A DNA stretch of 64,000 bases from Clostridia bacterium (GCA_017394835.1 JAFPXD010000067.1:15929-79928), one strand, 5' to 3'. Numbered from the stretch's first letter, positions 38,121-55,230 are shown. The notes: a model not told the origin generated them from the letters alone. A program made the numbers and translations.

Positions 38121-39578
38121 TTATACAAGACGGTCGAGTATCCGGTAAACGAGCTCCATATCGAGCCCATCCCGCACGGCCGAGGCAAGCTTTTCGTACT
38201 GTTCTTCCTTGTAATTGACGGGGTCAAACGAGCCGAGCCTTTCGTATCCCACGCCCTTTTTATCGCAAAGCGCCTTCAATACGGCTTTCGCTGCTCCTTC
38301 CGCATCGAATATCCCGTGGATATAGCTCCCGTAAACGCAGCCCCTTGATACAACGGGCGAGGCTTTGCCGCTCCTTCCCATGTGGATCTCATACCCTTCG
38401 TAACGGACGCCGTTCAATCCGGCGAAAACGCCTTCTATCCCACAGAAAACGCCTTCCGTCTGCCGCTGTATCTTTTCACCTTCGAAAACAGTTTCGATCG
38501 GGAGCAGGCCTATCCCGCCGATCTCGCTTATCCCGGAGGATTCCACGTTTTCGGGATCGGCTATGCGGGTACCGAGCATCTGATAACCGCCGCATACGCC
38601 GAATACGGGCGTATTCCTTGAAGCCGCCTGTTTTATCTTCGCTTCAAGGCCGCATTCGCGCAGCCAGACGAGATCCGATATGGTGCTCTTTGTGCCGGGA
38701 ATGACTATCATATCCGGCTCGCCGAGTTCCGACGGGCGTTCGATATAGCGGACGGATACGTTTTCAAAGCGTTCGAAAGGCGCAAGATCGGTGAAATTGG
38801 AGATGCGCGGAAGCTTTATAACCGCTATGTCGATGAGCTTCTTCGCGCCCTTGCCGAATCTTTCGGAAAGGCTGTCCTCATCGTCTATATCGACGTGCAG
38901 ATACGGCACAACGCCGGCGACGGGCACGCCGCAGAGCCTTTCGAGTATCTCAAGGCCGGGTTCGAGTATCTTTTTATCGCCGCGGAATTTATTGACGACA
39001 GTACCCTTTACGCGGGCGCGCTCATCGGGATCGAGCAAAGCGACCGTTCCGTAAAGCTGAGCGAAAACGCCGCCGCGGTCTATATCCCCCACGAGCAAAA
39101 CGGGCGCGTCAACGAGCTTTGCCAAGCCCATATTGACTATATCCTCCTGCTTAAGGTTTATTTCCGCAGGGCTCCCCGCGCCCTCTATCACTATTATATC
39201 GTTTTCGTCGGCAAGCGAGCTGTATGCTTCCATGACCGCGGGAACGAACTCGCGTTTGCGGCGGTAATACTCCATAGCGCGCATGTTCCCTATGGGCCTG
39301 CCGTTCACTATCACCTGACTCCCCACGTCGGTAGTGGGCTTTAGCAGTATCGGATTCATGCGGACGTCGGGCTCCTTCCCCGCCGCCTCCGCCTGCACCA
39401 CCTGCGCTCTGCCCATCTCAAAGCCGTCCTTCGTGATAAATGAGTTGAGCGCCATGTTCTGGCTCTTGAAGGGCGCGACCTTAAAGCCGTCCTGCTTGAA
39501 TATGCGGCAGAGCCCCGCGCAGAGCAGGCTCTTTCCCGCATTGGACATAGTGCCCTGTATCATTATGTTTTTTGCCAT
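38121..39578 (-). CDS. cobQ: Cobyric acid synthase (CobQ/CbiP)
   Basis: [12 protein letters not shown] nucleotide-binding start and GATase domain [15 protein letters not shown] lies 7 nt before ATG 39578; the track start at 39719 is an extension into cobD. Confidence 0.92.
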
Positions 39579-40615
39579 TGCAATACCTCCGATACGGCTT
39601 TTGTCAGCCTTTCGTTTTCCTCGGGCAGCTTCACGGCGATGCGGTAAAACCCCTCCCCGAGTCCATGATAGTTCGAGCAGTCCCTTATCTTGACGCCCTT
39701 TTCGAGCAGTTTTTCGCAAAGCCCCGCTTCACCTTTGAAAAGCAGGTAGTTGACCTCCGAAGGGAATACGATAAAGCCCATATTCATAAGCGAAGCCGAA
39801 AGCCTTTCCCTTTCCGCGCGTATGAGCTTCCTCGTTTTTTCAAGGAATTCCGTTTCCTTCAGCGCCGCCGCGCCGGCTTCCTGCGCCGGGACCGAAACGT
39901 TCCATTGCTGAGTTTGGCGGGACATTCGGGCAAGCAGACCGCGATCGGCCGTTAGGCTGTAGCCGAGCCTTATTCCCGCCATACCGAAGCTTTTTGTAAA
40001 CGCTTTAAGTACGACCGCGTTGGGATAGTGGGAAAGCCGGGGCACAAAGCTTTTATTTTCATCGGCAAGATCCATAAAGCATTCGTCTATGAAGAGCCTT
40101 ATGCCGAGCCTTTCACAAAGCCTTGCCGTTTCCTCGATAAGCTCCGCATCCGCAGTAAGTCCCGTTGGATTGTTCGGATCGCAGATAAACACAGCATCCG
40201 GCTTTGTTTCCTCTATCTGCCGCAGTACGGAAGGCGTCAGTCTGAAATCGTTTTCCTCTGAAAGAAAGTGCCTCACGATAAGGGCGCCCTCCGCAGGGAG
40301 CGAGTATTCCGCAAAGGTCGGAGCGAGCTCCAGCACGGATCCCGGCCTTTCGGAATGGGCGAAAGCATAGATCAGCTCCGCGGCGCCGGCGCCGCAAAGC
40401 ACGTATTCCTTCGGGACGTTTTCATGCTCCGCGATAGCCGAAACGAGCTTTCGGCAGTACGGATCGGGGTAATGCGCCGCGTTTTCGAGCGCGCGGACAA
40501 CGGCCCTTTTTACGCCTTCCGGCATGCCGAAGGGGTTTGTGTTAGCTGAAAAATCGAGCTCGATATTTCCCTCGTATATGTCTCCGCCATGGAGATTTTC
40601 GGAATTATAAAGCAT
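39563..40615 (-). CDS. cobD: Threonine-phosphate decarboxylase (CobD, class I/II aminotransferase fold)
   Basis: Histidinol-phosphate-aminotransferase-like PLP fold ([16 protein letters not shown]). Sits between cbiB and cobQ. Confidence 0.8.
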
Positions 40616-41588
40616 GGGTCAAAACCAGTATTATGAGTCTTAGTCCCGCGAATACAATAAGCGACAAACCCGCCGCGGCGAACATTATCCTGTTTGCACG
40701 GGTAATGTCGGTGTTTTCTATCTCGCGCACAGGGTCGCCTATGAACTCCTTTTTGTGCAGCGCGCCGTGATAGTATGCGTCGCCCGCGAGCCGCAAGCCC
40801 AGCAGTCCCGCCATAACAGATTCGGTCTGGGCGGAGTTGGGGCTCGCGTGCTTATAACGGTCGCGTCTGAATATGCGGAGGCCGTTTTTCGCATCGAAAC
40901 CGAGCAGCGCCCCGCCTGAAAGCATTATGACGGCGGACAGCCTTGCGGGAATGAAATTGAAAAGATCGTCGAGCTTCGCGGGAAAGAAGCCGAAATGCTT
41001 ATACGGCGGCTCAACGTAGCCGAGCATCGAATCCATCGTGTTGACGGCCTTATACAGCATTCCGAGCGGCCCGCCGCCTATCGCAAGAAACATGAGCGGC
41101 GCGATCACGCCATCCGAGGCGTTTTCCGCAACGGTCTCCACGGCGGCGCGGGCTACGGCCTTTTCGTCAAGGGAAGCCGTATCGCGCCCGACTATCATTG
41201 AAACGGCCCTGCGCGAAGCTTCAATATCGCCCGTATCAAGGGCATATTTCACCTTCATGCTCTCGTCGCGGAGAGACCTTGCGGCAAGGCACTGCCAGCA
41301 CATTACGCTTTCGGCGGCAAACCCGAACCACGGAGTGACCTTGTAAAGCAAAAACAGAATGACGGCGGGAACTGCGAACGCCGCGGCTGCGACCATTGTC
41401 CAGAGCACTCCTCCCGCGGCCTTTTCTCCGCGTTCCGTTTTCGGGAACGCCTTTCTCAAAAGCTTTTCCAATGCCGAAATAAGCTTCCCCATGAGCACCA
41501 CAGGATGCGGGATCGAATGCGGATCACCGACCGCAATATCTATGACCGCGCCCGCGAGGAGCGCGAATAAAGACCATTTACCGAACAT
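40605..41588 (-). CDS. cbiB: Adenosylcobinamide-phosphate synthase (CbiB)
   Basis: Integral membrane protein with GDPHSIPHPV and SPNSAQTES motifs typical of CbiB/CobD. Confidence 0.88.
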   Translation of the reverse strand: MFGKWSLFALLAGAVIDIAVGDPHSIPHPVVLMGKLISALEKLLRKAFPKTERGEKAAGGVLWTMVAAAAFAVPAVILFLLYKVTPWFGFAAESVMCWQCLAARSLRDESMKVKYALDTGDIEASRRAVSMIVGRDTASLDEKAVARAAVETVAENASDGVIAPLMFLAIGGGPLGMLYKAVNTMDSMLGYVEPPYKHFGFFPAKLDDLFNFIPARLSAVIMLSGGALLGFDAKNGLRIFRRDRYKHASPNSAQTESVMAGLLGLRLAGDAYYHGALHKKEFIGDPVREIENTDITRANRIMFAAAGLSLIVFAGLRLIILVLTHAL

Positions 41589-43558
41589 CAGCCCTGAAAT
41601 GTGAACACGTAAACGGGGTTGCGCGCAGTCATAAGGTTATACCCCCCGATCCGACGCGCCTTTGAAACGTTTATCATAACGGCTTCCTTTTCGGCAAAGT
41701 CCCTCTCATTCATAAGCTTGGTGAGCTCCGCCGCCGTTTCGAGCGATACTGCCGCCGCGACTATCCGCGCGTGTGGCGATCTCTCCCATACAAGCTCCGC
41801 TATCTCGCGAATGCTGCCGGAGCTGCCCCCTATGAAAACGTGCGTGGGAGCGGGCAGATCCGTGCATGCTTCCGGGGCCGCGCCCGTGACCGAAACAATG
41901 TTCACCGTGCCGAAGGCCTCCGCGTTGGCTTTCAAAAGCTCAGCGGCTTCGGGCTTTTTCTCTATCGCATAAACCTTTCCGCGAGGAGCGGCGAGCGCCA
42001 TTTCAACGGAGACCGAGCCCGTTCCCGCGCCAACGTCCCAGCACACCGAATCGGGCAAAAGACGAAGCTTTGACATGACTATCGCCCTTATTTCGGATTT
42101 GGTCATGGGCACTATGGGCTTTTCATCCGCGCTGCGGGTAAACGCCTCGTCCGGGAGCCCCGCGGCGGAGCTTTCGATATTATCGTTTTCAATGAGGAGC
42201 GCGCAAAGGGGATCGAACTTTGTGTTTTTAAGCTCCGCGGCAGAGCCCTCTGTGATGCGTTCCTCCGGATAGCCGAGCCTTTCGCCCGCCCAAAGCTTTA
42301 CGTTTTCAAGGCCCGCTGAGCAAAGCTCCTTAATGAGCTTCCCCGCGCCGTTCTCACCTCCGACGAGAGCGAACACGCTGCGGTTCCTGCGGACGGCCGG
42401 GACGATCGCGGCGTCTCTTCCATGGAGGCTGACCGCCGCCGTGTTTTCGTAAGAAGCCCCCGCCTTTGCGCAGAGGTATGAAAGCGAGCTTACGCCCGGT
42501 ATCACCCTCACATCACAAAAATCGAGCTTGGGAACGAGCTTTTTGGCTCCGCTGAAGAAGCCGACGTCGCCGCTCAGCATGACCGCAAAGCGGGAGAATT
42601 CCTTGTGTTCCTTTATTACGCTTATTATCGCATCCGGCGATATTGCCTCGAATACCGTCTGATCCGGCCTCGCAGTCTCAAGCATGCGGGCGGCGCCTAT
42701 AAGGCATTCCGCATGGGAAGCCGCTTCCGCCGCTTCCGCAGTCATGCCCGCTCTTGTTCCCGTACCCACTCCTATTACGCTTACGCTCGGGCGCGATACG
42801 AACCCGAAACGCTTTTCTAAAAGCTCCAGCGTTTCTTCAAACGTTGATCCCAGAGCGCCGCTTTCCGGACGCCCTATGACAATGAGCTTCGCGCCCGCCT
42901 TCATTGCGGCAAGCGCCTTTTCCTCAAAGCCGCCCGCCTTGCCGGAATCCTTCGTTACGACGTAAGCGGCGTTCACGGACTTTATCATAGCCGCGTTCAT
43001 GCCCACGGAGAATGGCCCCTGCATCGCGAGTATGTGGGAGGGCTTCAGACCCGCCTCGCGGCAGGCGGTTATAGAGCTTTCAACAGGGAGCACCCTTGCA
43101 AAAGCTCTTTCATCAAAATCTTTGATCCCCGAAAAAGCGGCAAGCTCCTTCGAACCCGTAGTCAGCAGGATATTGCCTATCGCACCGCTTAAGTATTCCA
43201 CCGCTTCCGGAATATCCTTTACGCAGACGGCGCTTTCCGGCGCGCCTTCTCCGCTTCTTTCGACGCGAAGGTATTCCGTGCCCGTTTCAAGGCAAGCATG
43301 CATCAGGTTTTCAGTCACGACGGACGCATACGGGTGGGTCGCGTCTATGACAAGATCAAAGCGCTCTTTTGAAAAGAGCTCCTTCATCTCCTCAAGATCC
43401 ATTCTCTTGGACAGCACCTTGAGCTTTTCGGCGGGTTCTATAAGCTCCCCGCCGTATTCCGTCGCCGTGCAGGCCGTAACGAGAGCATCCTGCAGGCTGA
43501 GAAGATCCGCTATCCTTCTTCCTTCGGTGGTTCCGGCAAAAACACAGAGCTTAAACAT
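41588..43558 (-). CDS. cbiJ-cbiE-cbiT: Triple fusion: cobalt-precorrin-6A reductase (CbiJ) + cobalt-precorrin-7 C5-methyltransferase (CbiE) + cobalt-precorrin-6B C15-methyltransferase, decarboxylating (CbiT)
   Basis: aa 1-~245 are CbiJ-like (CVFAGTTEGR, IDATHPYA, MQGPFS). aa ~250-455 are CbiE-like (VIGVGTG...VIPGVSS). aa ~460-656 are CbiT-like with SAM motif WDVGAGTGSVS. Confidence 0.85.
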   Translation of the reverse strand: MFKLCVFAGTTEGRRIADLLSLQDALVTACTATEYGGELIEPAEKLKVLSKRMDLEEMKELFSKERFDLVIDATHPYASVVTENLMHACLETGTEYLRVERSGEGAPESAVCVKDIPEAVEYLSGAIGNILLTTGSKELAAFSGIKDFDERAFARVLPVESSITACREAGLKPSHILAMQGPFSVGMNAAMIKSVNAAYVVTKDSGKAGGFEEKALAAMKAGAKLIVIGRPESGALGSTFEETLELLEKRFGFVSRPSVSVIGVGTGTRAGMTAEAAEAASHAECLIGAARMLETARPDQTVFEAISPDAIISVIKEHKEFSRFAVMLSGDVGFFSGAKKLVPKLDFCDVRVIPGVSSLSYLCAKAGASYENTAAVSLHGRDAAIVPAVRRNRSVFALVGGENGAGKLIKELCSAGLENVKLWAGERLGYPEERITEGSAAELKNTKFDPLCALLIENDNIESSAAGLPDEAFTRSADEKPIVPMTKSEIRAIVMSKLRLLPDSVCWDVGAGTGSVSVEMALAAPRGKVYAIEKKPEAAELLKANAEAFGTVNIVSVTGAAPEACTDLPAPTHVFIGGSSGSIREIAELVWERSPHARIVAAAVSLETAAELTKLMNERDFAEKEAVMINVSKARRIGGYNLMTARNPVYVFTFQG

Positions 43559-44282
43559 TTCTGTACCCCCTCGGAGTTACCATGCTCCCGTTTATCATTT
43601 TGGCAGATGAATTGCCTATAAAAACCGTGCAGAACATATCCGCCGGGAACTCCGCAAGCTCCGAAAGCGGCATGAAGAATCGCTCCTCCCCCTCGCGCCC
43701 TATATTGCGGGCAACGCCGCAGATACGGTCTTCGGGAAGGTATCTCAAAAGTATTTCGCAGGCCTTTTTCAGATGATCGGGGCGGCCGTGGCTCGCCGGA
43801 TTGTAAAGGGCGATCGAAAAATCCGCCTCCGCCGCGTTCACCAAACGCTTTTCTATGATCGCCCATTCCGTGAGCCTGTCGGAAAGCGATATAACGGCGA
43901 AATCGTGCGTGAGCGGCGCGCCCAGAAGCGCCGCGCCCGAGCAGGCGGCGGTAAGACCGGGTACTACCTCTATCTCGGGCTCCGCGTCTTCACCGCGAAG
44001 CTCGAAGCAAAGCCCCGCCATGCCGTAAATGCCGCTGTCGCCGGAGCAGACGAGCGCGGTATTCCTGCCTTTTTTCGCTTCGTCCAACGCCATGCGGCAG
44101 CGCTCCGCTTCACGCGTCATGGGAGTGGTGAGGTATTCCTTTTCGGGATAACGCGCTTTTACAAGCTCGACGTAAACGTGATAGCCTATTATCGCGTCCG
44201 CGCTTTTCAGCGCCTCGTCCGCGCGGACGGTCATGTTTTCGTAATTGCCGGGGCCTATGCCCACAACGTAAAGCTTACTCAA
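43551..44282 (-). CDS. cbiH: Cobalt-factor III / precorrin-3B C17-methyltransferase (CbiH)
   Basis: LYVVGIGPGN and VCSGDSGIYGMA motifs. TTG 44282 follows GGAGGT by 5 nt; the track start (TTG 44303) would contain that RBS. Confidence 0.88.
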   Translation of the reverse strand: MSKLYVVGIGPGNYENMTVRADEALKSADAIIGYHVYVELVKARYPEKEYLTTPMTREAERCRMALDEAKKGRNTALVCSGDSGIYGMAGLCFELRGEDAEPEIEVVPGLTAACSGAALLGAPLTHDFAVISLSDRLTEWAIIEKRLVNAAEADFSIALYNPASHGRPDHLKKACEILLRYLPEDRICGVARNIGREGEERFFMPLSELAEFPADMFCTVFIGNSSAKMINGSMVTPRGYRNV

Positions 44283-45285
44283 ATCGCACCTCCGTTTTTT
44301 CAAGCGCGGCGGCGACTGTCACGCCGCCCTGCGCAGTCTTCCTTATTATGAGCTCGTCCGCTCCCATAAGCGCCGCGCGCTCGCATACGTTATCCACGCC
44401 CGTCACGCTCTTCACGAAATCGGAGGGGGTGAAATCGCCCTTGACGGCGGCAAGCTCCTCCGCCGAATAAAAGCTTATCGGGAGCCCTCTTTCACGGCAA
44501 AATCCCAAAAGGCCCGCCTCGTCCTTTTTGAGGTCTATGGATGCGGCGGATTTTACCGCGCGCGGGTCGATCCCTTTTTCCTCAAGCACAGTGTTTACGG
44601 CGTTTTCGATCGCTTCCTTCGTCGCGCCCCTTCGGCAGCCTATGCCGAGCGTTACGCATTTTGGGATGAGGCGGAGAGTTCGATTAAACGGCTCTTCGGT
44701 ACGGTACGTGATAAAGATCCCCGTAACGCCTTCGCCTATCTTGAGCCCAGCGGGGAGCTCGCCCGTTATCGGAAGATCGCTCTTTAGCGGGACTTCCCCC
44801 TCGAGCACGGCGGCGGAAACGGCCTTCGCTGCCCCCATGTCGCTTATTTCGTAACCCTGCGTTTTCGCCCATGAATCCACGGAAAAACGGCCGTTCCTGT
44901 CAGTCGCGGTAGTGACGACGGGCACGGCGCCTATGGCTTCGGCAATGCGCTCCGTGAGCTCGTTCGCGCCGCCCAGATGCCCGGAAAGAAGGGAGACCGC
45001 GAACCTTCCCGTTTCATCGACGGCGATAACGGCGGGATCGGTCGTTTTGCTCTTTACAAAGGGCGCTACGCACCTTACCGCGATCCCGCAGGAGGATACG
45101 AAAACGAGCGCTTCGGATGCGCCGAACGCCTCCTCATAGAGCGGCGCCGAGGGCTTTGGAAGGGGCAAAAAGCCATCGCCCGAAAGCCTTTCAGCAGTAT
45201 AAAAGCGGAGCTCGCCCGAAAGCGCTTCGCCTATGCGACGCGCGGTCTCGATCCCTTTTTTGCTGTATGCGAAAAGCGTTATCAT
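44275..45285 (-). CDS. cbiG: Cobalt-precorrin-5A hydrolase (CbiG)
   Basis: Two-domain CbiG architecture (LVFVSSCGIAVR, VTLGIGCRRG). ATGA overlap with cbiF; the track start at 45357 is an extension. Confidence 0.85.
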   Translation of the reverse strand: MITLFAYSKKGIETARRIGEALSGELRFYTAERLSGDGFLPLPKPSAPLYEEAFGASEALVFVSSCGIAVRCVAPFVKSKTTDPAVIAVDETGRFAVSLLSGHLGGANELTERIAEAIGAVPVVTTATDRNGRFSVDSWAKTQGYEISDMGAAKAVSAAVLEGEVPLKSDLPITGELPAGLKIGEGVTGIFITYRTEEPFNRTLRLIPKCVTLGIGCRRGATKEAIENAVNTVLEEKGIDPRAVKSAASIDLKKDEAGLLGFCRERGLPISFYSAEELAAVKGDFTPSDFVKSVTGVDNVCERAALMGADELIIRKTAQGGVTVAAALEKTEVRFE

Positions 45286-46034
45286 TTGGCCTTCCTGAAC
45301 TCCGTTGTGAATTTCGGGTCGTACAGAAGCGAGCGCAGGTAATCTTCGCCCATACATCCGCCTACTATTATTAGGCTCGTTTTCTTCAAGCCGTTCTCCG
45401 TGACGGTCTTATGGAGCGTTCCCACCGTGCAGCGGAATATGCGTTCGTCCGGCCAGGTCGCCTTATAGACCACGGCGGCGGGGGTATCCTCGGTATAACC
45501 GCCCTCTATGAGCTCCCGCTGGAGTTTTTCTGTAAGCGAGGTCGAAAGGAAGAGCACCATGGTCGCGTTGTGCGCAGCCAAGGATGCGATGCTTTCCTTT
45601 TCCGGTACGGGCGTTTTGCCCGCGGCTCTCGTTATTATGACCGTCTGGCTGACGCCGGGAAGGGTGTATTCCGCCTTCAGAGAGGCCGCCGCTCCGCAGA
45701 ACGAGCTGACACCGGGGGTCACGTCGTAATCTATCCCGAGGGCGTCGAGCTCATCGAACTGCTCGCGCACCGCGCCGTAGATAGAGCTGTCGCCTGTGTG
45801 GAGGCGGACGGTGGTCTTCCCCGCCGCTTCCGCGTTTTTTATGGCCTCAACGACCTCTTCAAGGGTCAGCTTCGCGCTGTCCATTATCTCGCAGTCGGGT
45901 CTGCAGTAAGAAAGCAGCTCCGGATTGACGAGCGAACCCGCCCATATCACGACGTCCGCTTCCGAAAGGAGCCTCGCGCCGCGCACGGTGATGAGATCTG
46001 CGGCGCCCGAGCCCGCTCCCACAAAATGCACCAT
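45282..46034 (-). CDS. cbiF: Cobalt-precorrin-4 C11-methyltransferase (CbiF)
   Basis: VHFVGAGSGAADLITVRG and RLHTGDSSIYGA motifs. ATG 46034 lies 7 nt after GGAGG. The alternative ATG 46040 overlaps the cbiD stop. Confidence 0.88.
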   Translation of the reverse strand: MVHFVGAGSGAADLITVRGARLLSEADVVIWAGSLVNPELLSYCRPDCEIMDSAKLTLEEVVEAIKNAEAAGKTTVRLHTGDSSIYGAVREQFDELDALGIDYDVTPGVSSFCGAAASLKAEYTLPGVSQTVIITRAAGKTPVPEKESIASLAAHNATMVLFLSTSLTEKLQRELIEGGYTEDTPAAVVYKATWPDERIFRCTVGTLHKTVTENGLKKTSLIIVGGCMGEDYLRSLLYDPKFTTEFRKAK

Positions 46035-46036
46035 AG

Positions 46037-47173
46037 TCATTCCTCCGTAAAAAAGTTCAGGTATCCGCGGGCGTTTTCGGTCTCGCCCAGGACCCCGTAT
46101 TCCTTTGAAAACATTATCATTTCAACGCTCATCCCGTCGCCTGCGCGGTGGGAAAGATTTGCTTTCGCCCTTGCCGTGACGCTTTTGAGAGCGGCTTTTT
46201 CAAGCACGGGATCGGCCTCGCGCATGAGGCGCACAGCCTCGTCGCAGGCGACGCATTCCAGCATCTTTTTAATAAGTCCCGTGTCCGCTCCCGCCGCGCC
46301 CGCGTGGGCGGCCAGTATCTCCATGCGGCAGTCGCCGTATTTGGAGTGGGTGTTCATCATATTGCCAGCGAGCTTCACGAGTTTCCCGATATGTCCTATC
46401 AGCAGGAGCCTTTTGAAGCCGAGCTCACGGCAAATATCAAGCGTATCCCCTATGAAATTTGAAGTCTGCACGGCTTTTTCCGGGTCTGTGCCGAGGCTCG
46501 CTCTTATGAACTCCGCTCCGTAATTGCCGGGGGTCAGAAGCGCGGTTTCAAACCCCAAAGCCCTTCTTTGTGAAAGCTCGGCGCGGATCGTATCGACGAG
46601 CGCCTTTTCGCTCATTGGCTCCACTATGCCCGTCGTACCGAGCACCGATATGCCTCCGACGATGCCGAGCCGTGGATTGAAGGTCTTTTTCGCAAGCTCC
46701 TTACCCTGTGGTATGGATATCACTACGGAAAGCCCCTCACCGCAGTCGAAAAGCTTCATGACCTCCTCTGTGTTTTCCTTTATCATGAGCCGCGGTACGG
46801 AGTTTATAGCCGCGTTCCCGACAGGCTGATCGAGGCCGGGCTTTGTAACTCTGCCCACTCCCTCGCCCCCGTCGATAGTCACTCCGGGCGTGTTCGAATA
46901 CGTTACGCAAGAATACACTAGCGCGCCGTCCGTTATATCGGGATCGTCGCCCGCATCCTTTCTGACCGCACAGGATACGGCGGTATCGCTCATTGCTATA
47001 TCCTCAATATCGAGCTCGAGCGTTATTCCCTTCGGCGTTTCGAGCGTAATATGCTCCTTGCGTCTGCCGGATAAAAGCATATAGGCCGCCGCCTTCGAGG
47101 CCGCCGCCGCGCAGGAGCCGGTAGTATAGCCGAGTCTTAATCTTTTGCCGTCCTGAATGATAAATTCGTTCAT
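46037..47173 (-). CDS. cbiD: Cobalt-precorrin-5B C1-methyltransferase (CbiD)
   Basis: LRLGYTTGSCAAAASKAA and GISVLGTTGIVEPMS motifs. Confidence 0.9.
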   Translation of the reverse strand: MNEFIIQDGKRLRLGYTTGSCAAAASKAAAYMLLSGRRKEHITLETPKGITLELDIEDIAMSDTAVSCAVRKDAGDDPDITDGALVYSCVTYSNTPGVTIDGGEGVGRVTKPGLDQPVGNAAINSVPRLMIKENTEEVMKLFDCGEGLSVVISIPQGKELAKKTFNPRLGIVGGISVLGTTGIVEPMSEKALVDTIRAELSQRRALGFETALLTPGNYGAEFIRASLGTDPEKAVQTSNFIGDTLDICRELGFKRLLLIGHIGKLVKLAGNMMNTHSKYGDCRMEILAAHAGAAGADTGLIKKMLECVACDEAVRLMREADPVLEKAALKSVTARAKANLSHRAGDGMSVEMIMFSKEYGVLGETENARGYLNFFTEE

Positions 47174-47799
47174 TTCGTTATCCGGTAAAGCATTGCGTTG
47201 ACTATAGCCGCGGCAACGTTAGAGCCGCCCTTCCTGCCGCGCGCAACGATGTGCGGCACGGAGGACGCGATGATCAGTTCCTTCGATTCCACTACGTTCA
47301 CGAAGCCCACGGGCACGCCTATTATGAGCTTCGGGGAAAGCCGCCCCTCCCTCATCAGCTCGTCCAATGCGATAAGCGCCGTCGGCGCGTTGCCTATCGC
47401 GAATATAAGCGGCTTTTCAAGCTTCGCCGCCTTCTCCATGGAGACCGCGGCGCGGGTGACGCCGCGCGCCTTGGCTTCAGCCGCCACGTCGTCATCGCTC
47501 ATGAAGCAGCGGACCTCCCCGCCGAGCTTCGAAAGGGCCGCTTTGCTTATTCCCGCTTTTGCCATCTGCGTATCGGTCACTATATCGCAGCCGCTGTTAA
47601 GGGCTTCGATCCCGATCTTTACCGCATTTTCGGAAAAAACGAGGTTGTTGACGTACTCGAAATCGGCGGTCGTGTGAATGACGCGCTTTATTACGGGCTC
47701 GTTTTCGGGATCGAGCACGACTCCCTCTTCGGCAAGGATGCCGGAGATGATCTCAAAGCTGCGTTTTTCTATATCCATGGGTCTTAATATCTCAAACAC
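47170..47799 (-). CDS. cbiC: Cobalt-precorrin-8 methylmutase (CbiC)
   Basis: IEKRSFEII, VIHTTADF and IGNAPTAL motifs. GTG 47799 is preceded by AAGGAG. Confidence 0.9.
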   Translation of the reverse strand: MFEILRPMDIEKRSFEIISGILAEEGVVLDPENEPVIKRVIHTTADFEYVNNLVFSENAVKIGIEALNSGCDIVTDTQMAKAGISKAALSKLGGEVRCFMSDDDVAAEAKARGVTRAAVSMEKAAKLEKPLIFAIGNAPTALIALDELMREGRLSPKLIIGVPVGFVNVVESKELIIASSVPHIVARGRKGGSNVAAAIVNAMLYRITK

Positions 47800-49147
47800 G
47801 ATGCTTCTCCTTTATGCAGGCGTTGTAAAAGCCCGCGGCAAATACTGGGTTCGCGTAAAAATGGATGTGCGGATAGCCCGCGTAAAGCGTTTCTGAGGCG
47901 TGTACGCAGGGCCAGCTCCTGCCGTCGGGCTTTCGCGCGGTAAAGTCCCCGCCCGGGCGCTCCGCATCCCAATGATGGAATTCGTGCGCGGGGATGCTCC
48001 CGCCCGCCGGGCAAAGCATATTATCGCGCTCGGCGGTCAGCGTGACGTAGCCGAAGCGCGTGAGCCTTCCGTTATCGAAGCTCCTTCCCTTTATCAAGCC
48101 GACCATGGGAAGCGCGCCAATCGCCTCCGTCAGATACATGAAGCCGCCGCATTCGGCAATGCAAGGCAAGCCTTTTTTCAAGGCTTTGCTTATGCTTTCG
48201 CGCATTGATATGTTTGCAGAAAGCTCCTTTGCGTAAAGCTCCGGATAGCCTCCGCCGAGGTAAAGGCCGCAAACGTTTTCGGGAAGCCGCTCATCCTCCA
48301 TGGGGCTGAACGGTATGAGCTCGGCGCCCATCTCGCGCAGAAGCTCCAGGCTGTCTTCATAGTAAAAACAGAACGCCTTATCACGGGCGACCGCTATGCG
48401 GACGGGCTCGCGTTTTTCGGTCTTGACCGCTTCGTATAAAAGCTTCGGCGCGGTTCCCGCCAATTCCATGACCCCGTCAATATCGAGGCTCTTTTCCGCC
48501 TGTTCGGCAAGTCTTTGCAGTTTTTCCTTTATATCAGAGATCTCTTCCGCGGTTACAAGCCCCAGATGGCGGCTGCCTATCTCGCATTCCGCCATGCGCG
48601 GCATGAAGCCGAGGGGCTTTATGCCGAGTCGGGAGCTAATCTCCGGAGCAAGCGCCGAATACACCTTCCCGGAGCAGTTGTTGAGAATTACGCCCTTTAT
48701 CAAGCTTTCCGGCACGAATTCCGAAAAGCCCTTTATCTGCGCCAATACGGAAAGCGAGGCGCCCTTCGCGTTCACGATGAGGACCGCGGGCGTTTCGGTA
48801 ACTCCTGCAAGATCGTACGCGCTCGCCTTCATCGTCGTAAGGCCGAGCCCGTCATAATAGCCCATCACGCCCTCTATGACGGTGATATCCCTTCCCCTTC
48901 CGTTTTTCGCAAGCAGGAAGCGAAGCGTGTTTTCATCGAAAAAGAACGGATCGAGATTGGATGATGGCGCGCCGATGACCTTTCTGTGGAACATCGGGTC
49001 TATGTAATCGGGGCCGCATTTGGCTCCGCCCACATCTATCCCGCGATTTTTGAGCGCCTGCAGCACGGCGCAGGTCACGGTCGTTTTTCCGCAGCCCGAG
49101 CCCGTGCCGGCTATGATCACCCTTTTTACGCTTGCTTCCTCAATCAT
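47792..49147 (-). CDS. cbiA: Cobyrinate a,c-diamide synthase (CbiA)
   Basis: GTGSGCGKTTVT P-loop and GATase domain AECGGFMYL. ATG 49147; the track start at 49180 is an extension. Confidence 0.9.
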   Translation of the reverse strand: MIEEASVKRVIIAGTGSGCGKTTVTCAVLQALKNRGIDVGGAKCGPDYIDPMFHRKVIGAPSSNLDPFFFDENTLRFLLAKNGRGRDITVIEGVMGYYDGLGLTTMKASAYDLAGVTETPAVLIVNAKGASLSVLAQIKGFSEFVPESLIKGVILNNCSGKVYSALAPEISSRLGIKPLGFMPRMAECEIGSRHLGLVTAEEISDIKEKLQRLAEQAEKSLDIDGVMELAGTAPKLLYEAVKTEKREPVRIAVARDKAFCFYYEDSLELLREMGAELIPFSPMEDERLPENVCGLYLGGGYPELYAKELSANISMRESISKALKKGLPCIAECGGFMYLTEAIGALPMVGLIKGRSFDNGRLTRFGYVTLTAERDNMLCPAGGSIPAHEFHHWDAERPGGDFTARKPDGRSWPCVHASETLYAGYPHIHFYANPVFAAGFYNACIKEKHRV

Positions 49148-50234
49148 AGTGCAAAAGCCCCTTTTCCTTTGCGATCTCAAGCAGTTTACCGTTATACTCG
49201 TTGAGTTTTCCGATAGGAGCGCCCGCGTCTATCACTTCCTCGCAGGACAGCATGAGCGCCCGCGCCCTAATAAAATGCTCTTCCCGCATGGGCTCGAACG
49301 CCGTCGCCGTAACGCATTCCGAAGCAAGATTATTTGCGACGGCTGCATCCACGTCGTTTTCAAACAGTATCCCCGCGGCAAAAGGCACGCGCTCCCTTTG
49401 CAGTCTTCTCATGACGGGGATGCCGAAGCCGGCTCCAGCTATTACGAATACCTTGGGCTTCCCTTCCGCTTTTTCAAGCTCAACGCTTCCGAACGCGGCG
49501 TTATAGGAACCCTTTTTAAGATCGTAGAGCTCCTCAATGGGGACCTTTTTTATGACCTCATCGGGCGTGCCGAATGCGGCGATCGTCTCCCCCTTAACGC
49601 AAAGGAGCAGATCCGAAGCTTTCGCCGCAAGATCCGTTTCGTGCAGGCTCATTATCACCGTAACGCCGCGCTCGCGGGCAAGATACCTTAAAACGGAAAG
49701 CAGCTCCGTCTTGTGCTTTATATCGAGGAAGGCCGTCGGCTCGTCAAGTATCAGAAGCTCCGGCTGCTGAGCAAGCGCGCGCGCAAGAATAACGCGCTGC
49801 TTCTGACCGTCCGAAAGGGTCATAAAATCGCGATCCGCAAGCGGCTTAACGCTGACGAGCTCAAGCGAGTCGTCAACAATGCGTTTATCTTCATCGGTCA
49901 TTCGTCCGACAATATTCGTATAGGGGTATCTGCCGAGTTCGACGATCTCGCGCACCGAAAGCAGTTCGGGCCTTATACGGTCGGTAAGCACGACGGCCTG
50001 TTTTTTGGCAAGCTCCTTCACCGTCATCGCCGAAAGCTCCCCGCCTTCGATCGCGACCGTGCCGCGGATCGCCGCAAGCTGGCGGGCGATCGTCTTCAAT
50101 ATGGTTGATTTGCCCGAGCCGTTGGGCCCGATGAGCGTGAGTATCCCGCCCTTTTCGAGCGCTATATCTATATCGCGGATAAGCGTTTTTCCGTTATAAC
50201 CGACTGCAAGGCCGCGCGTTTCAAAAAAGCTCAT
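49140..50234 (-). CDS. BtuD/FecE-like ABC importer ATPase with a ~110-aa C-terminal extension
   Basis: Walker A GPNGSGKST, signature LSDGQKQRV, Walker B LLILDEPTAFLD, then an extra domain KVFVIAGAGFGIPVMRRL...LLHYD. ATGA overlap with the permease. Confidence 0.85.
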   Translation of the reverse strand: MSFFETRGLAVGYNGKTLIRDIDIALEKGGILTLIGPNGSGKSTILKTIARQLAAIRGTVAIEGGELSAMTVKELAKKQAVVLTDRIRPELLSVREIVELGRYPYTNIVGRMTDEDKRIVDDSLELVSVKPLADRDFMTLSDGQKQRVILARALAQQPELLILDEPTAFLDIKHKTELLSVLRYLARERGVTVIMSLHETDLAAKASDLLLCVKGETIAAFGTPDEVIKKVPIEELYDLKKGSYNAAFGSVELEKAEGKPKVFVIAGAGFGIPVMRRLQRERVPFAAGILFENDVDAAVANNLASECVTATAFEPMREEHFIRARALMLSCEEVIDAGAPIGKLNEYNGKLLEIAKEKGLLHYD

Positions 50235-51268
50235 GCCGACTCCCTTCTGCGACGCGAGATCATCATTGAGATCACTATCGGAGCGCCGAATATGCTCGTG
50301 ACCGTGCCTATATTGAGCTCGGTAGGCGCGAATACGGTCCTTGCGATAAGATCGCAGAACACGCAGAATACCGCCCCCGCCAGGAACGCCGCGGGGATCA
50401 CAAAAGCGGGACGGGACGTTTTAAGAAGCCTTCTTGTAATATGGGGTACGGCGATCCCCACGAATGAGATCGGGCCCGCAAGCGCCGTCACGCAGGCTGA
50501 AAGCAGGCTTGAAAGAAGTATCAGCGCAACACGGAAAGGCTTTACCGAAACGCCCATGCTTTTTGCGTACCCTTCGCCCAATGCATAAGCGCCCATGGGC
50601 TTTGAAAGCAGCCATGAAGTCAATACCGCGGGCAGGCAGATGACGGCCGCCGTAACTACCGAATCCCAGCCCTTTCCCGAGAAGGTTCCCATGGACCAGT
50701 ATTTGAGATTTACTATATCCTGTTCGGAAGCGAAAGTGACCGCCATATCGGTGACCGCAGAGCAGATATACCCCACCATTATGCCGACCACGAGCAGCAG
50801 CTCCATGTTCTTGACCTTTTGAGAAAAGAGCAGTACGAGCGCGGTTATGAGCAGCGAGCCCAAAAAGGCAGCGGCTACCGTCACTCCCGGGCTCATGGCG
50901 ATCCTGCCCGTCAGGAATATCATCGTGATCCCCACTATCATTTTAGCGCCCGAGGATATGCCGAGCACGAACGGACCCGCTATCGGATTGCGGAAGAAGC
51001 TTTGGAGCAGGAAGCCCGAAACAGCGAGCGCGCCGCCCAAAAGCGCCGCCAAAAGCATTCGCGGCATTCGGACGTTGAAGAGGATAATGCTTTCTGTCGA
51101 TGCGTCCTTTCCGTTAAACAGGAGCGCCCGGATCTCCCCGAGGGTCAGGCGCACGGAGCCTATCGCGAGATTCAGAAACAGCGCCGCCGCGAGCAGACCG
51201 AAAAGAAGCATCATCACTGCGGCGAAGCGGCTTACCGTATTTCTTTTTGAAGCGTTTTCGGCGCGCAT
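50231..51268 (-). CDS. BtuC/FecCD-family ABC importer permease
   Basis: About 9-10 TM helices with FecCD hallmarks (PRMLLAALLGGALAVSG, VGIAVPHITR). GGAGGG RBS precedes ATG 51268. First gene after the riboswitch. Confidence 0.85.
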   Translation of the reverse strand: MRAENASKRNTVSRFAAVMMLLFGLLAAALFLNLAIGSVRLTLGEIRALLFNGKDASTESIILFNVRMPRMLLAALLGGALAVSGFLLQSFFRNPIAGPFVLGISSGAKMIVGITMIFLTGRIAMSPGVTVAAAFLGSLLITALVLLFSQKVKNMELLLVVGIMVGYICSAVTDMAVTFASEQDIVNLKYWSMGTFSGKGWDSVVTAAVICLPAVLTSWLLSKPMGAYALGEGYAKSMGVSVKPFRVALILLSSLLSACVTALAGPISFVGIAVPHITRRLLKTSRPAFVIPAAFLAGAVFCVFCDLIARTVFAPTELNIGTVTSIFGAPIVISMMISRRRRESA

Positions 51269-51278
51269 ATACCCTCCG

Positions 51279-51572
51279 AAAAAACAATAAAAGACCGAGC
51301 ATGGCAATAAGCATGCACGGCCGTTTTTCCGCACTTAAACAAACGCCTCCGCCTTCTGTCCTTCGGCTCAAGGCTCACTCAAGCAGGTCTTCCGGCTTGC
51401 GCATCAACGGCTTTGGGAGCGCCTTCTCGGGCAAATTGCCCAATGGCCGACTTTCGTCCGCTCCCGCCTTCGCGCTTACGGCGGCGGTTCCGCTCGGGAT
51501 TTTCACCCGATTGTCTATTCTCCCCCAAAGGCAGTTGAGCCAAAGGGGGCACTCGAGTTCTTTCGTCACAGC
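51279..51572 (-). promoter_or_regulatory. Cobalamin riboswitch (minus strand) with intrinsic terminator expression platform
   Basis: Minus-strand core GGGTGAAAATCCCGAGCGGAACCGCCGCCGTAAGC (reverse complement of ~51471-51510). B12 box GCCGGAAGACCTGC (reverse complement of 51383-51396). Terminator CCGTGCATG-loop-CATGCTCGG plus TCTTTTATTGTTTTTT (complement 51279-51320). Confidence 0.88.
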
Positions 51573-51648: not shown

Positions 51649-51677
51649 TTGACAAAACCTTTAATGGGAGTTATGCT
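51649..51677 (+). promoter_or_regulatory. Sigma-A promoter (TTGACA-17 nt-TATGCT) of the lipoprotein operon
   Basis: -35 at 51649-51654 and -10 at 51672-51677. Confidence 0.7.
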
Positions 51678-51694
51678 CAAAATAATCGAATAAG

Positions 51695-51978
51695 CGTTTG
51701 AGTGCGCCGCCCTGCCTTCGGGCTCTGCGGCGAGAATAGGGAATCCGGTGCAAATCCGGAACGGTACCGCCACTGTATGCGCGTAGAAACCGTCATGTGA
51801 CGAAAGTCGGTCATTGAGGGAAACCTTGAGAAGGCTGATGTCGGTTTTGCTGATGCGTGAGTCAGGAGACCTGCTTGGATGTGTGTTATCGGTGCGCCCT
51901 CGGTCGTGGGGCGGATCGGTATGCTTTATGTGTGCATATCTTTAAGCGGAGCGGTATTCAGGCTCCGCTTTTATTATT
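51695..51978 (+). promoter_or_regulatory. Cobalamin riboswitch (plus strand) with intrinsic terminator expression platform
   Basis: Core AATAGGGAATCCGGTGCAAATCCGGAACGGTACCGCCACTGTA (51734-51776). B12 box GTCAGGAGACCTGC (51861-51874). Terminator AGCGGAGC-loop-GCTCCGCT plus TTTTATTATTT (51945-51978). Confidence 0.92.
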
Positions 51979-53232: not shown

Positions 53233-54027
53233 ATGAACATCAGAAAGACTTTTTCATTTTTCCTCTGTGCCGCCGTCCTGTGTCTTCTGTTCGCCGCGTG
53301 CGGGCAGAAGCCGGACGGTAAGGCGCCGATCGCGGACGGAGTCTATTCCGCCGATTTCAAGACGGACGGCTCCATGTTCCACGTGAACGAGGCCCATCAC
53401 GGCAAGGGCACCCTCACCGTTAAGGACGGCAAGATGACCATTCACATCACCATGCCTTCCAAGAACACGGTCAACCTGTTCCCGGGCCTTGCCGAGGATG
53501 CGCAGAAGGAAGGCGCCGAGCTCATACAGCCGACTCTGGATACCGTCACATATGAAGATGGCACGACCGAGGAGGTCTATGGCTTCGATATCCCCGTTCC
53601 CTATCTCGATAAGGAATTCGACTGCGCGCTCGTGGGCACCAAGGGCAAGTGGTACGATCATAAGGTATCCGTATCAAATCCCCAGCCCGTTTCCGATAAC
53701 GCCGAGTCCATAAAGGACGGCGAGTACCTCTGCGAGGTCACCCTGTCCGGCGGAAGCGGCAAGGCGAGCATCGAAAGCCCCGCGAAGATAACCGTGAAGG
53801 ACGGAAAAATGACCGCCGTGATCGTATGGTCGAGCAGCCATTACGAATACATGACGATCGGCGAGGTCAAGTATGAGCCCGTCAATACCGAGGGCAATTC
53901 CACGTTCGAGATACCCGTCGAGCTCGATCGCGATATAGCGGTATCGGCTCTCACCACAGCCATGAGCGAACCGCATCTTATCGATTACACCATCCGCTTC
54001 GACGGTTCCACCATTAAGTCCAACTGA
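53233..54027 (+). CDS. Lipoprotein of unknown function with an internal tandem duplication
   Basis: Signal peptide with lipobox FAAC. Two ~125-aa repeats each carry DG-x-Y ... TVKDGKMT (DNA 53416-53439 versus 53791-53814). Confidence 0.7.
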   Translation: MNIRKTFSFFLCAAVLCLLFAACGQKPDGKAPIADGVYSADFKTDGSMFHVNEAHHGKGTLTVKDGKMTIHITMPSKNTVNLFPGLAEDAQKEGAELIQPTLDTVTYEDGTTEEVYGFDIPVPYLDKEFDCALVGTKGKWYDHKVSVSNPQPVSDNAESIKDGEYLCEVTLSGGSGKASIESPAKITVKDGKMTAVIVWSSSHYEYMTIGEVKYEPVNTEGNSTFEIPVELDRDIAVSALTTAMSEPHLIDYTIRFDGSTIKSN

Positions 54028-54102
54028 TTTGGCTCCGTGTGTCTTCTGCGTGCGTCGGCATGTTCGGCGTGCGCAGAAGTTTTCACTATGTAAAGGAGGA
54101 TC

Positions 54103-55230
54103 ATGAAACGCATTGCCGCTTTAGCACTCGTAATACTGTCTCTGTTTTCGCTTATCGGCTGCCGCGAGCACCCCAATTCGGGCGCGCTCGGAAACGGCTG
54201 GGAGCCCGTTTCGAAAACGGAGCTTTCCTTCGCTCACGAATTTTCGATAGACGAGTACGAAGGCGGTTACAAGCTCGTTACCATCAACGACGGCGGCAGG
54301 TTCCTCATCGTACCGGAGGGAATGGATGCGCCCAAAGGTATCGCTTCCGATATAGCGGTGCTTAAAAGGCCCGTCCGGAATATCTATATTGCGGCAACAG
54401 CCGTTATGTGCCTTTTCGACGGGCTCGGCCGTCTCGACGCGATACGCCTTTCCGGCACGAAGGCCGAGGGCTGGTACATTGAGAACGCCCGTAAGGCGAT
54501 GGAATCGGGCTCCATTCTTTATGCGGGCAAATACTCACAGCCCGATTACGAGCTTATTTTGAAGGAGAATTGCCCTCTTGCCATTGAATCCGGCATGATA
54601 GGGCATGCTTCCGACGTGAAGGCACAGCTTGAAAAGCTCGGCGTGCCGGTGCTCATCGACCGTTCAAGCTACGAAACGCATCCTCTGGGGCGCACCGAAT
54701 GGGTAAAGGTTTACGGCGCGATCCTCGGCGAGGAGGAAAAGGCCGAAGCGCTGTTTCGCGAACAGGTCGCGCTTATGTCTTCCGTGGGCGGTACCAATAC
54801 GGGCAAGACCGTCGCTTTCTTCCGCATAAGCGGAACAGGCTATGCGGTCGCCCGCAGATCCGGCGATTACGTCAGCAAAATGATAGCACTTGCCGGAGGC
54901 GAATACGCGTTCAAGGATCTCGGCGGCGAAAGCGCCATGGCGACCGTTAATGTCGAAATGGAGACCTTCTTCGCCACCGCACGCAATTCCGATATAGTAA
55001 TTTATAACAGCACCATCGGCGGAGAAGTCGCCAATATGGATGAATTCCTGGCGCTCAATCCGCTTATGAAGGAACTGAAGGCCGTTCAAAACAGCGCCGT
55101 ATGGTGCACGCGTGAAAGCATGTATCAGCAGACTCTCAATATAGGCCGAATGATAAGCGAGCTCAACGAAATAATGAACGCCTCTCCCGAAGAAGATCCC
55201 GATCTCGTCTATTTCTTCCGTCTGCACTGA
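54103..55230 (+). CDS. BtuF-like ABC importer substrate-binding lipoprotein (cluster A-II / Peripla_BP_2 type)
   Basis: Signal peptide with lipobox LIGC. Two-lobe iron-siderophore/cobalamin binding-protein architecture. RBS AAGGAGG. Same riboswitch-controlled transcript. Confidence 0.8.
   Translation: MKRIAALALVILSLFSLIGCREHPNSGALGNGWEPVSKTELSFAHEFSIDEYEGGYKLVTINDGGRFLIVPEGMDAPKGIASDIAVLKRPVRNIYIAATAVMCLFDGLGRLDAIRLSGTKAEGWYIENARKAMESGSILYAGKYSQPDYELILKENCPLAIESGMIGHASDVKAQLEKLGVPVLIDRSSYETHPLGRTEWVKVYGAILGEEEKAEALFREQVALMSSVGGTNTGKTVAFFRISGTGYAVARRSGDYVSKMIALAGGEYAFKDLGGESAMATVNVEMETFFATARNSDIVIYNSTIGGEVANMDEFLALNPLMKELKAVQNSAVWCTRESMYQQTLNIGRMISELNEIMNASPEEDPDLVYFFRLH

Follow-up and report, generated by a model that had tools for sequence, protein, structure and literature searches.

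The locus considered here raises the question of what a lipoprotein with an internal duplication does among the vitamin B12 genes of a Clostridia bacterium, and which ligand it may bind. The window, i.e. the whole stretch of 64,000 nucleotides that was analysed (GCA_017394835.1, JAFPXD010000067.1:15929-79928), carries at positions 53,233 to 54,027 a gene for a lipoprotein of 264 amino acids (aa), which a previous analysis of the sequence alone (hereafter the sequence-only reading) had described as lacking an assignable family and had proposed as a new corrinoid or tetrapyrrole binding protein. We predict that this protein is composed of two diverged copies of the NEAT (haem-receptor) fold in tandem, and we find that its gene belongs to a cassette that also encodes an exported chelatase of the CbiK type and the components of an ATP-binding cassette (ABC) importer. 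The NEAT fold itself is known; what is new is its occurrence in a B12-linked, chelatase-coupled import cassette, and our literature searches found neither a report that links NEAT with cobalamin, B12 or cobamide nor a description of the cassette.

Two diverged NEAT domains in tandem

The open reading frame (ORF) is genuine, as had been proposed, and begins with a hydrophobic signal sequence followed by the lipobox LLFAAC23, which provides the anchor of the protein; a sortase sorting signal is not present. The two halves of the protein are related beyond chance, since BLASTP aligned them over 76 columns with 30% identity (E-value 4e-4), and the profile-profile comparison with hhalign (profiles from 30 homologues) over 71 columns with 35% identity (E-value 1.2e-4). 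The stretch TVKDGKMT, whose recurrence the sequence-only reading had pointed out along with the duplication, is found at residues 62-69 (53416-53439) and 187-194 (53791-53814), the two copies being spaced by 375 nucleotides and identical at 21 of 24 nucleotide positions. The same β-sandwich is predicted for both halves in the AlphaFold2 model.

The lack of an assignable family did not hold. The Pfam NEAT family (PF05031) matches the protein in two stretches with an E-value of 3.3e-6 and a score of 28.0 bits, just below the gathering threshold of 32.8 bits; a precomputed PF05031 match is present on some of the close homologues, a natural CbiK-NEAT fusion (P0228) reaches 32.3 bits, NCBIfam gives a weak match to IsdC, and homologues carry the NCBI name "iron transporter". 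The AlphaFold2 model, calculated from a 30-sequence alignment with a mean predicted local distance difference test (pLDDT) score of 85.3, comprises two β-sandwiches (residues 36-152 and 163-256). Searched with Foldseek against the PDB, it retrieved NEAT proteins as all of the top 13 matches, with a probability of 1.00, among them IsdH N2N3 (7e-7), IsdB, IsdX1 (template modelling score, TM, 0.66), IsdX2-NEAT5 (TM 0.71) and Hbp2; the single-domain matches have TM scores of 0.66-0.71 and root-mean-square deviations of 3.4-3.7. The profile of the C-terminal domain matches IsdX1 (3sz6) with an E-value of 1.6e-3, and a PDB search with the single sequence of the lipoprotein gave no match. A loose likeness to FMN_bind domains, also suggested in the sequence-only reading, was rejected, as neither Pfam nor NCBIfam reports a match to FMN_bind.

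The family is large: the word-index search yielded more than 8,000 sequences, and 1,893 clusters at 50% identity have E < 1e-3. Its members range from single-domain forms to giants with up to six domains. In one of them (P0206, 662 aa) an N-type NEAT-like domain (439-557) is joined to an N-terminal Ser/Thr protein kinase domain, and this protein is possibly a sensor built on the same predicted ligand-binding domain.

Residues of the predicted pockets

Across diverse members the N-terminal domain retains Y38, M48, W140 and Y141 as invariant residues, with D142 and H143 nearly so, while the C-terminal domain retains Y165, G173, G174, S201, Y204, P228, M244 and Y252. Position 248 is His in most members, with Tyr, Arg or Thr in some. 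The canonical Y-x3-Y haem-iron ligand motif is altered in both domains. In a register with IsdX1 that is inferred from the HMMER profile alignment and not from structural superposition, the place of Y-x3-Y in the last strand (NYNASYDI) is occupied in the C-terminal domain by H248-L-I-D-Y252, and the lip of IsdX1 (SSRMNRY; in NEAT domains an S-x4-Y 3-10 helix that covers the haem) lies opposite a shorter GGSGK loop. In the N-terminal domain the last strand reads WYDHKV, with the invariant Y141 and without a second Tyr (Y-x-H), and S47-M48-F49-H50, with the invariant M48, may correspond to the lip. To judge from this conservation, the position of the axial ligand appears to survive in both domains, as Tyr141, perhaps with Met48, in the former, and as His248 backed by Tyr252 in the latter.

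A conserved chelatase-NEAT-importer cassette

The location reported in the sequence-only reading, between the genes for the exported CbiK and the binding protein and behind a cobalamin riboswitch (RF00174, 95 bits), is confirmed. The window contains two such riboswitches, which according to Rfam stand back to back in divergent orientation. The annotated neighbours of the NEAT gene include neither a sortase gene nor one like that of the haem oxygenase IsdG.

Searches of GTDB genomes with two peptide patterns gave the closest relatives, in 80 loci, and onto these the proteins of the window were mapped by tblastn. The exported CbiK is encoded directly upstream of the NEAT gene in 79 of these loci and the binding protein downstream of it in about 74, followed by the permease and the ATPase; in genomes other than that of the window the permease gene directly follows the binding-protein gene, and in many loci cbiA-cbiC-cbiD continue in the same direction after the importer genes. 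Nearly all NEAT and CbiK copies of the related loci have a signal sequence or a lipobox. The partners also occur as fusion proteins: CbiK-NEAT (P0159, P0181, P0228), NEAT-CbiK (P0167) and NEAT-Peripla_BP_2 (P0133, P0136, P0241, P0253). The link of homologues to B12 riboswitches (RF00174) is likewise common. Among the 70 loci with enough upstream DNA for the scan, 56 have a plus-strand cobalamin riboswitch at most 1.6 kb upstream of the exported CbiK, in two the only riboswitch is divergent, and the remaining 12 lack one (when the 13 loci without an nhmmer match were rescanned with Rfam, a riboswitch, divergent in orientation, turned up in a single locus). The loci belong to Christensenellales-like Clostridia, Oscillospiraceae, Lachnospiraceae, Butyrivibrio, Anaerovoracaceae/Mogibacterium and two Spirochaetia, and most of these hosts come from the rumen and gut. 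The loci L073 and L079 have two CbiK-NEAT pairs each, with an ABC ATPase gene between them.

The exported CbiK and the binding protein

The exported CbiK consists of a lipobox (LAAC), a linker of ~100 aa and a chelatase core (residues 111-389), and the PDB entries that it matches best are those of S. enterica CbiK (1qgo), P. gingivalis FetB (9b86) and D. vulgaris CbiK(P) (2xvx). Its residues H271, E302 and H337 align with the metal site of S. enterica CbiK (H145, E175, H207), and because this His/Glu/His triad is invariant in 67 of 67 exported orthologues the protein looks catalytically competent. It is not the only chelatase of the genome, a possibility that we rejected on finding a second, cytoplasmic CbiK of 262 aa, encoded away from the cbi operon and alone behind its own cobalamin riboswitch (contig C19:36083-37219, locus L091:3441-4229). 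Among the loci of other genomes, those of Anaerovoracaceae/Mogibacterium (L041, L044-L046, L049, L050, L054-L056, L059, L062, L064, L067-L069, L071, L076, L081) have a second CbiK gene immediately in front of the riboswitch and of the gene for the exported CbiK; its product matches the chelatase core only and is presumably cytoplasmic, although its N-terminus was not checked, and the genomes in question keep HemB, CbiL and CbiM.

The model of the binding protein (pLDDT 90) has V. cholerae BtuF as its top Foldseek match (1.7e-12), with CeuE, haem binders of the ShuT/PhuT/HutB type and FecB scoring within 1-2 orders of magnitude of it. The best sequence-profile match is Listeria Lmo2184 (5joq), and a single-sequence search of the PDB gave no match. 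Since BtuF, siderophore binders and haem binders score almost alike, we rejected the fold of this protein as a guide to the ligand. It also has an extra N-terminal β domain of ~60 residues (residues ~36-96) that is not found in the matched PDB binding proteins, which are 255-290 aa long and give TM scores of 0.5-0.6 when normalised to the query.

Phyletic distribution and the corrin pathway

In a sample of 400 genomes drawn evenly from the class (the "class sample"; family members called with profile A1 at E <= 1e-10), 11 genomes carry the family, and CbiD, taken as the marker of corrin-ring synthesis, is present in 71 of 399. All 11 carriers have CbiD, versus 60 of 388 non-carriers (Fisher p 3e-9), i.e. 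the family occurs in 0 of 328 CbiD-negative genomes; CbiD was also found in 50/50 further carriers reached through the loci. Auxotrophs should possess a system for scavenging finished B12 no less often than producers do, which argues that the cassette is tied to synthesis. The early steps of the pathway are depleted among carriers: HemB (ALA, i.e. 5-aminolevulinate, dehydratase) is present in 9/42 carriers versus 26/38 non-carrier producers (p 4e-5), and CbiL in 22/42 versus 34/38 (p 5e-4). CbiM, of the cobalt energy-coupling factor (ECF) transporter, is encoded by only 1 of 11 carriers but 45 of 60 non-carriers among the producers of the class sample (p 6e-5). As 25 of the 50 further carriers have CbiM, strict complementarity with CbiMNQO was rejected and is at most partial.

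The genome of the window (2.38 Mb, 93% complete) was searched by tblastn and phmmer, the queries being the hem-cbi cluster from G135, a complete Clostridial genome. These searches found no HemA, HemL, HemB, HemC, HemD, SirC, CobA or CbiL, whereas orthologues of CbiA, C, D, ET, F, G, H, J, P and B and of CobD are present. There are only four TP_methylase genes (CbiF, CbiH, CbiE and an RsmI-like one); a weak TP_methylase match on contig C12, considered as a candidate CbiL or SUMT, was judged RsmI-like from its sequence, and a ParB-like ORF adjoins it. CbiM was not found in this genome, nor was NicO above the cut-off, and the only riboswitch-controlled importer is that of the cassette. The genome thus has the corrin pathway from CbiH onward and lacks its first steps. 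In the clade of the window (its genome, G000, and eight metagenome-assembled genomes, MAGs, G401-G408), CbiM is missing in 9/9 genomes, and HemB and CbiL in all eight tested, which do not include G402. Lachnospiraceae bacterium AC2029, an isolate with its locus on a 3.86-Mb scaffold, lacks HemB, CbiL and CbiM too. Because the whole clade and an isolate share these losses, they are not due to assembly gaps. A score based on CbiD would wrongly call the genome of the window a de novo B12 producer, as every step before CbiK, and CbiL as well, is missing. It fits the class of "tetrapyrrole precursor salvagers" defined by Shelton et al. 2019 (PMC6461909), mostly host-associated Firmicutes, for which the portions of that study used here name no uptake system.

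A tetrapyrrole relay as the proposed function

The cassette probably imports a precursor of the B12 ring, because its hosts make the ring but often not its precursor. The ligand is more likely an early precursor than finished cobalamin, because the family is missing from the CbiD-negative genomes of the sample and enriched where HemB or CbiL are missing. By analogy with the Isd relay, we propose, with a probability that we put at roughly 0.45, that the cassette forms a tetrapyrrole relay from an active surface chelatase to the importer and feeds a scavenged early ring precursor, perhaps loaded with cobalt, into the cbi pathway. An early, metal-free ring intermediate released by neighbouring cells, for example the isobacteriochlorins sirohydrochlorin or factor III, would reach the cell surface, where the exported CbiK would probably insert cobalt into it, or at least bind it. 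The two NEAT pockets, each for a metal-tetrapyrrole, would hold the cargo and pass it to the binding lipoprotein, and the ABC importer of the BtuFCD/Isd type would deliver it to the cbi enzymes of the cell. Cargo arriving without metal could be metallated by the cytoplasmic CbiK, B12 would shut off both operons via the riboswitches, and import of the precursor would still permit B12 synthesis in the organism of the window. Metal-free factors II and III accumulate in cobalt-starved cultures of Propionibacterium and Clostridium, which would make such compounds plausible public goods in a cobalt-poor rumen. We further suggest, tentatively, that the anaerobic B12 pathway of many Clostridia of the gut and rumen may in effect start outside the cell, with a scavenged, metal-free isobacteriochlorin (sirohydrochlorin or factor III) loaded with cobalt by the exported CbiK and relayed to the importer by a branch of NEAT re-tuned from haem to this cargo, a single system serving for both ring and cobalt.

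Of the earlier idea of a new corrinoid or tetrapyrrole binder, what stands is a candidate tetrapyrrole-binding surface protein, tied to CbiK and to the binding protein by synteny in ~80 genomes, by fusions and by the riboswitches in 56 of 70 loci; finished cobalamin has become the less likely ligand.

Several points weigh against the proposed relay. The genome of the window has no CbiL, so that cobalt-sirohydrochlorin alone could not enter its pathway; because of this the cargo should here carry the C20 methyl group (the level of factor III/precorrin-3), unless there is an unrecognised C20 methylase. The proposal also presupposes that the intermediates are free in the rumen or gut fluid. HemB is present in 9/42 carriers and CbiM in 26/61, mainly Anaerovoracaceae/Mogibacterium in which the cassette lies beside a full hem-cbi cluster, so the cassette is not confined to auxotrophs. 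Conversely, HemB is also missing from 12 of the 38 tested producers that do not carry the family, hence other routes must exist. The carrier counts include no correction for phylogeny, a good number of the carriers are MAGs whose completeness is unknown, and joint inheritance of the cassette and the cbi operon could by itself give rise to the association with CbiD.

If the relay were confirmed, no earlier route would be known by which tetrapyrrole precursors of B12 are taken up, and no earlier non-haem ligand of a NEAT domain; it would extend this fold beyond haem and assign a defined role to the homologues of the exported CbiK. In the gut and the rumen, B12 is a keystone nutrient shared within the community, and ruminants rely on the B12 that microbes make. 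We found no description in the open literature of surface collection of corrinoids or their precursors by Gram-positive bacteria. The cassette is widespread (~1,900 clusters at 50% identity) in Christensenellales-like Clostridia, Oscillospiraceae, Lachnospiraceae, Anaerovoracaceae and some Spirochaetia.

Alternative explanations

The main rival of the relay is that the NEAT domains capture finished corrinoids (cobalamin, other cobamides or cobinamide) at the surface and pass them through the wall to the BtuF-like protein and BtuCD, the system being a Gram-positive counterpart of Bacteroides BtuG/BtuH in which the exported CbiK is a further corrinoid binder. Control by a cobalamin riboswitch would agree with such a role, but is also compatible with the import of a precursor or of cobalt; the match of the binding protein to V. 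cholerae BtuF, the best found by Foldseek, would agree with it too, but this fold does not separate BtuF from haem and siderophore binders. The His at the axial position of the C-terminal domain would suit cobalt, and the cassette is the only riboswitch-controlled importer of the genome. Nevertheless, we regard capture of finished corrinoids as less likely than import of a precursor: the family is missing from 328 of 328 sampled CbiD-negative Clostridia, i.e. those that most need B12 uptake, and the invariant catalytic triad of the chelatase would have no role on a finished corrinoid.

A supply of cobalt alone, with Co2+ captured by the exported CbiK, cobalt or a small chelate taken up by the importer in place of CbiMNQO and the NEAT protein acting as a scaffold or chaperone, is suggested by the rarity of CbiM among the carriers of the class sample (1/11, versus 45/60 non-carrier producers), by the genome of the window, which has neither CbiM nor a NicO match above the cut-off, and by the cbi operons in which the cassette stands in the position of a cobalt transporter. 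It is improbable, however, as 25/50 further carriers do have CbiM, the depletion of HemB and CbiL is left unexplained, and there would be no role for two conserved predicted pockets with Tyr, His or Met at the axial positions; to our knowledge, NEAT domains are known only as porphyrin binders. No less improbable is ordinary acquisition of haem or iron of the Isd/Hbp type, to which the fold, the NEAT gene near a transporter and the NCBI name "iron transporter" would point, together with the best profile match of the binding protein, Lmo2184, which we take to belong to the Listeria NEAT locus, and the homologues of the exported CbiK, FetB and CbiK(P), deposited as haem binders. Against this, haem cannot be converted to corrin, and the cassette is controlled by B12 riboswitches, physically joined to cbi operons and found only in CbiD-positive genomes; moreover, the Y-x3-Y motif is altered in both domains, the lip of the C-terminal domain is replaced by GGSG, and no haem-degrading gene was seen in the cassette. 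Finally, a structural or adhesin-like surface lipoprotein that merely travels with the operon could be imagined, given that β-sandwiches are common in adhesins and that Foldseek reports weak matches to SiiE and SGBP-B. The probability of these matches is 0.3-0.6, versus 1.00 for NEAT, and the fusions to CbiK and to the binding protein as well as the invariant Tyr, Met and His at predicted pocket positions make a role without a ligand the most improbable of all.

Comparison with known systems

With the Isd, IsdX and Hbp relays of S. aureus, B. anthracis and L. monocytogenes the cassette shares the NEAT fold (probability 1.00, TM 0.66-0.71), the tandem domains, the proximity to genes of a Peripla_BP_2, FecCD and ATPase importer and, as proposed here by analogy, the logic of handing a tetrapyrrole through a thick wall to a binding lipoprotein. 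Unlike its counterparts there, the NEAT protein of the cassette is a lipoprotein and not sortase-anchored, scores below the Pfam NEAT threshold, has H/Y-x3-Y in the C-terminal and Y-x-H in the N-terminal domain in place of Y-x3-Y, and possesses a short GGSG loop as the C-domain lip. Those relays are iron-regulated, whereas the leader of this operon is a cobalamin riboswitch (Fur boxes were not searched for), and here the NEAT protein is paired with an exported chelatase (79/80 loci) and occurs only in genomes with the corrin pathway.

The exported CbiK recalls D. vulgaris CbiK(P) (2xvx) and P. gingivalis IhtB/FetB (9b86), which also combine a CbiK that bears an export signal with a neighbouring ABC importer. 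These systems are discussed in terms of haem or iron, and we know of no NEAT partner in either of them. In contrast, the chelatase of the cassette is a Gram-positive lipoprotein with a long linker, followed by the NEAT protein. A B12 element is likewise present ahead of cbiK-cbiL and btuCDF in Desulfovibrio (PMC545781).

BtuFCD and the Bacteroides proteins BtuG, BtuH, BtuJ and DUF4465 resemble the cassette in the riboswitch, the class-III binding protein, the type-II ABC importer and the accessory surface lipoproteins. The folds of the accessory proteins are, however, unrelated, and the Bacteroides systems serve auxotrophs, whereas the cassette is found in none of the 328 sampled CbiD-negative genomes.

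The genome of the window and most carriers resemble the salvagers of Shelton et al. 2019 (PMC6461909) in being host-associated Firmicutes that have the corrin pathway without its early steps. That study defined the phenotype and used only ALA in its tests, and in the genome of the window the missing steps extend down to CbiL. The source of the precursor of these salvagers is a question raised in 2019, for which the cassette is a concrete and testable candidate.

Features of the window

The coordinates of the features are collected in Table 1. The hairpin between the NEAT gene and the binding-protein gene is a candidate partial terminator, which may set the ratio of the surface proteins to the importer part.

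Table 1. Positions of the NEAT gene, its domains and the surrounding features, counted from the first nucleotide of the window.
Feature	Positions	Strand	Basis
cbiA, cbiC, cbiD, cbiF, cbiG, cbiH, cbiJ-E-T, cbiB, cobD, cbiP	38121..49180	-	Pfam; orthology to G135 cluster
ABC ATPase of importer, extra C-terminal domain	49140..50234	-	PF00005, E 4e-29
FecCD/BtuC-type permease of importer	50231..51334	-	PF01032, E 3e-79
Second cobalamin riboswitch, leading permease/ATPase/cbi operon	51365..51571	-	RF00174, 88 bits, full length
Sigma-70-like promoter of plus-strand operon	51649..51677	+	TTGACA-17-TATGCT, 10/12; consensus match only
Cobalamin riboswitch leading exported CbiK, tandem NEAT and binding protein	51683..51892	+	RF00174, 95 bits, E 2e-22, full length
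Exported CbiK-type chelatase lipoprotein, 393 aa	52043..53224	+	PF06180, E 2e-64
Predicted tandem NEAT-fold lipoprotein, 264 aa	53233..54027	+	Signal and lipobox, residues 1-23
N-terminal NEAT-like domain, residues ~33-152	53329..53688	+	AlphaFold2 strands 36-152; conservation in diverse alignment
C-terminal NEAT-like domain, residues ~159-258	53707..54006	+	AlphaFold2 strands 163-256; conservation; IsdX1 profile match
Hairpin and T-run between NEAT gene and binding-protein gene	54043..54079	+	16-pair stem, 9 GC pairs, then TTTTCACTAT
Class-III substrate-binding lipoprotein (Peripla_BP_2)	54103..55230	+	PF01497, E 2e-29

The ATPase of the importer is 364 aa long and has ~110 extra residues at its C-terminus; its orthologue in locus L001 has a precomputed match to PF27219 (MJ0874). 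Elsewhere in the genome, the fourth cobalamin riboswitch (contig C62:125282-125486, minus strand; locus L092:10645-13217, minus strand) precedes the gene of a 329-aa protein whose sole Pfam match is a C-terminal type-I dockerin, followed by a gene for a 527-aa protein with no Pfam match. The 329-aa protein is a candidate B12-regulated protein anchored to the cellulosome or to the cell surface.

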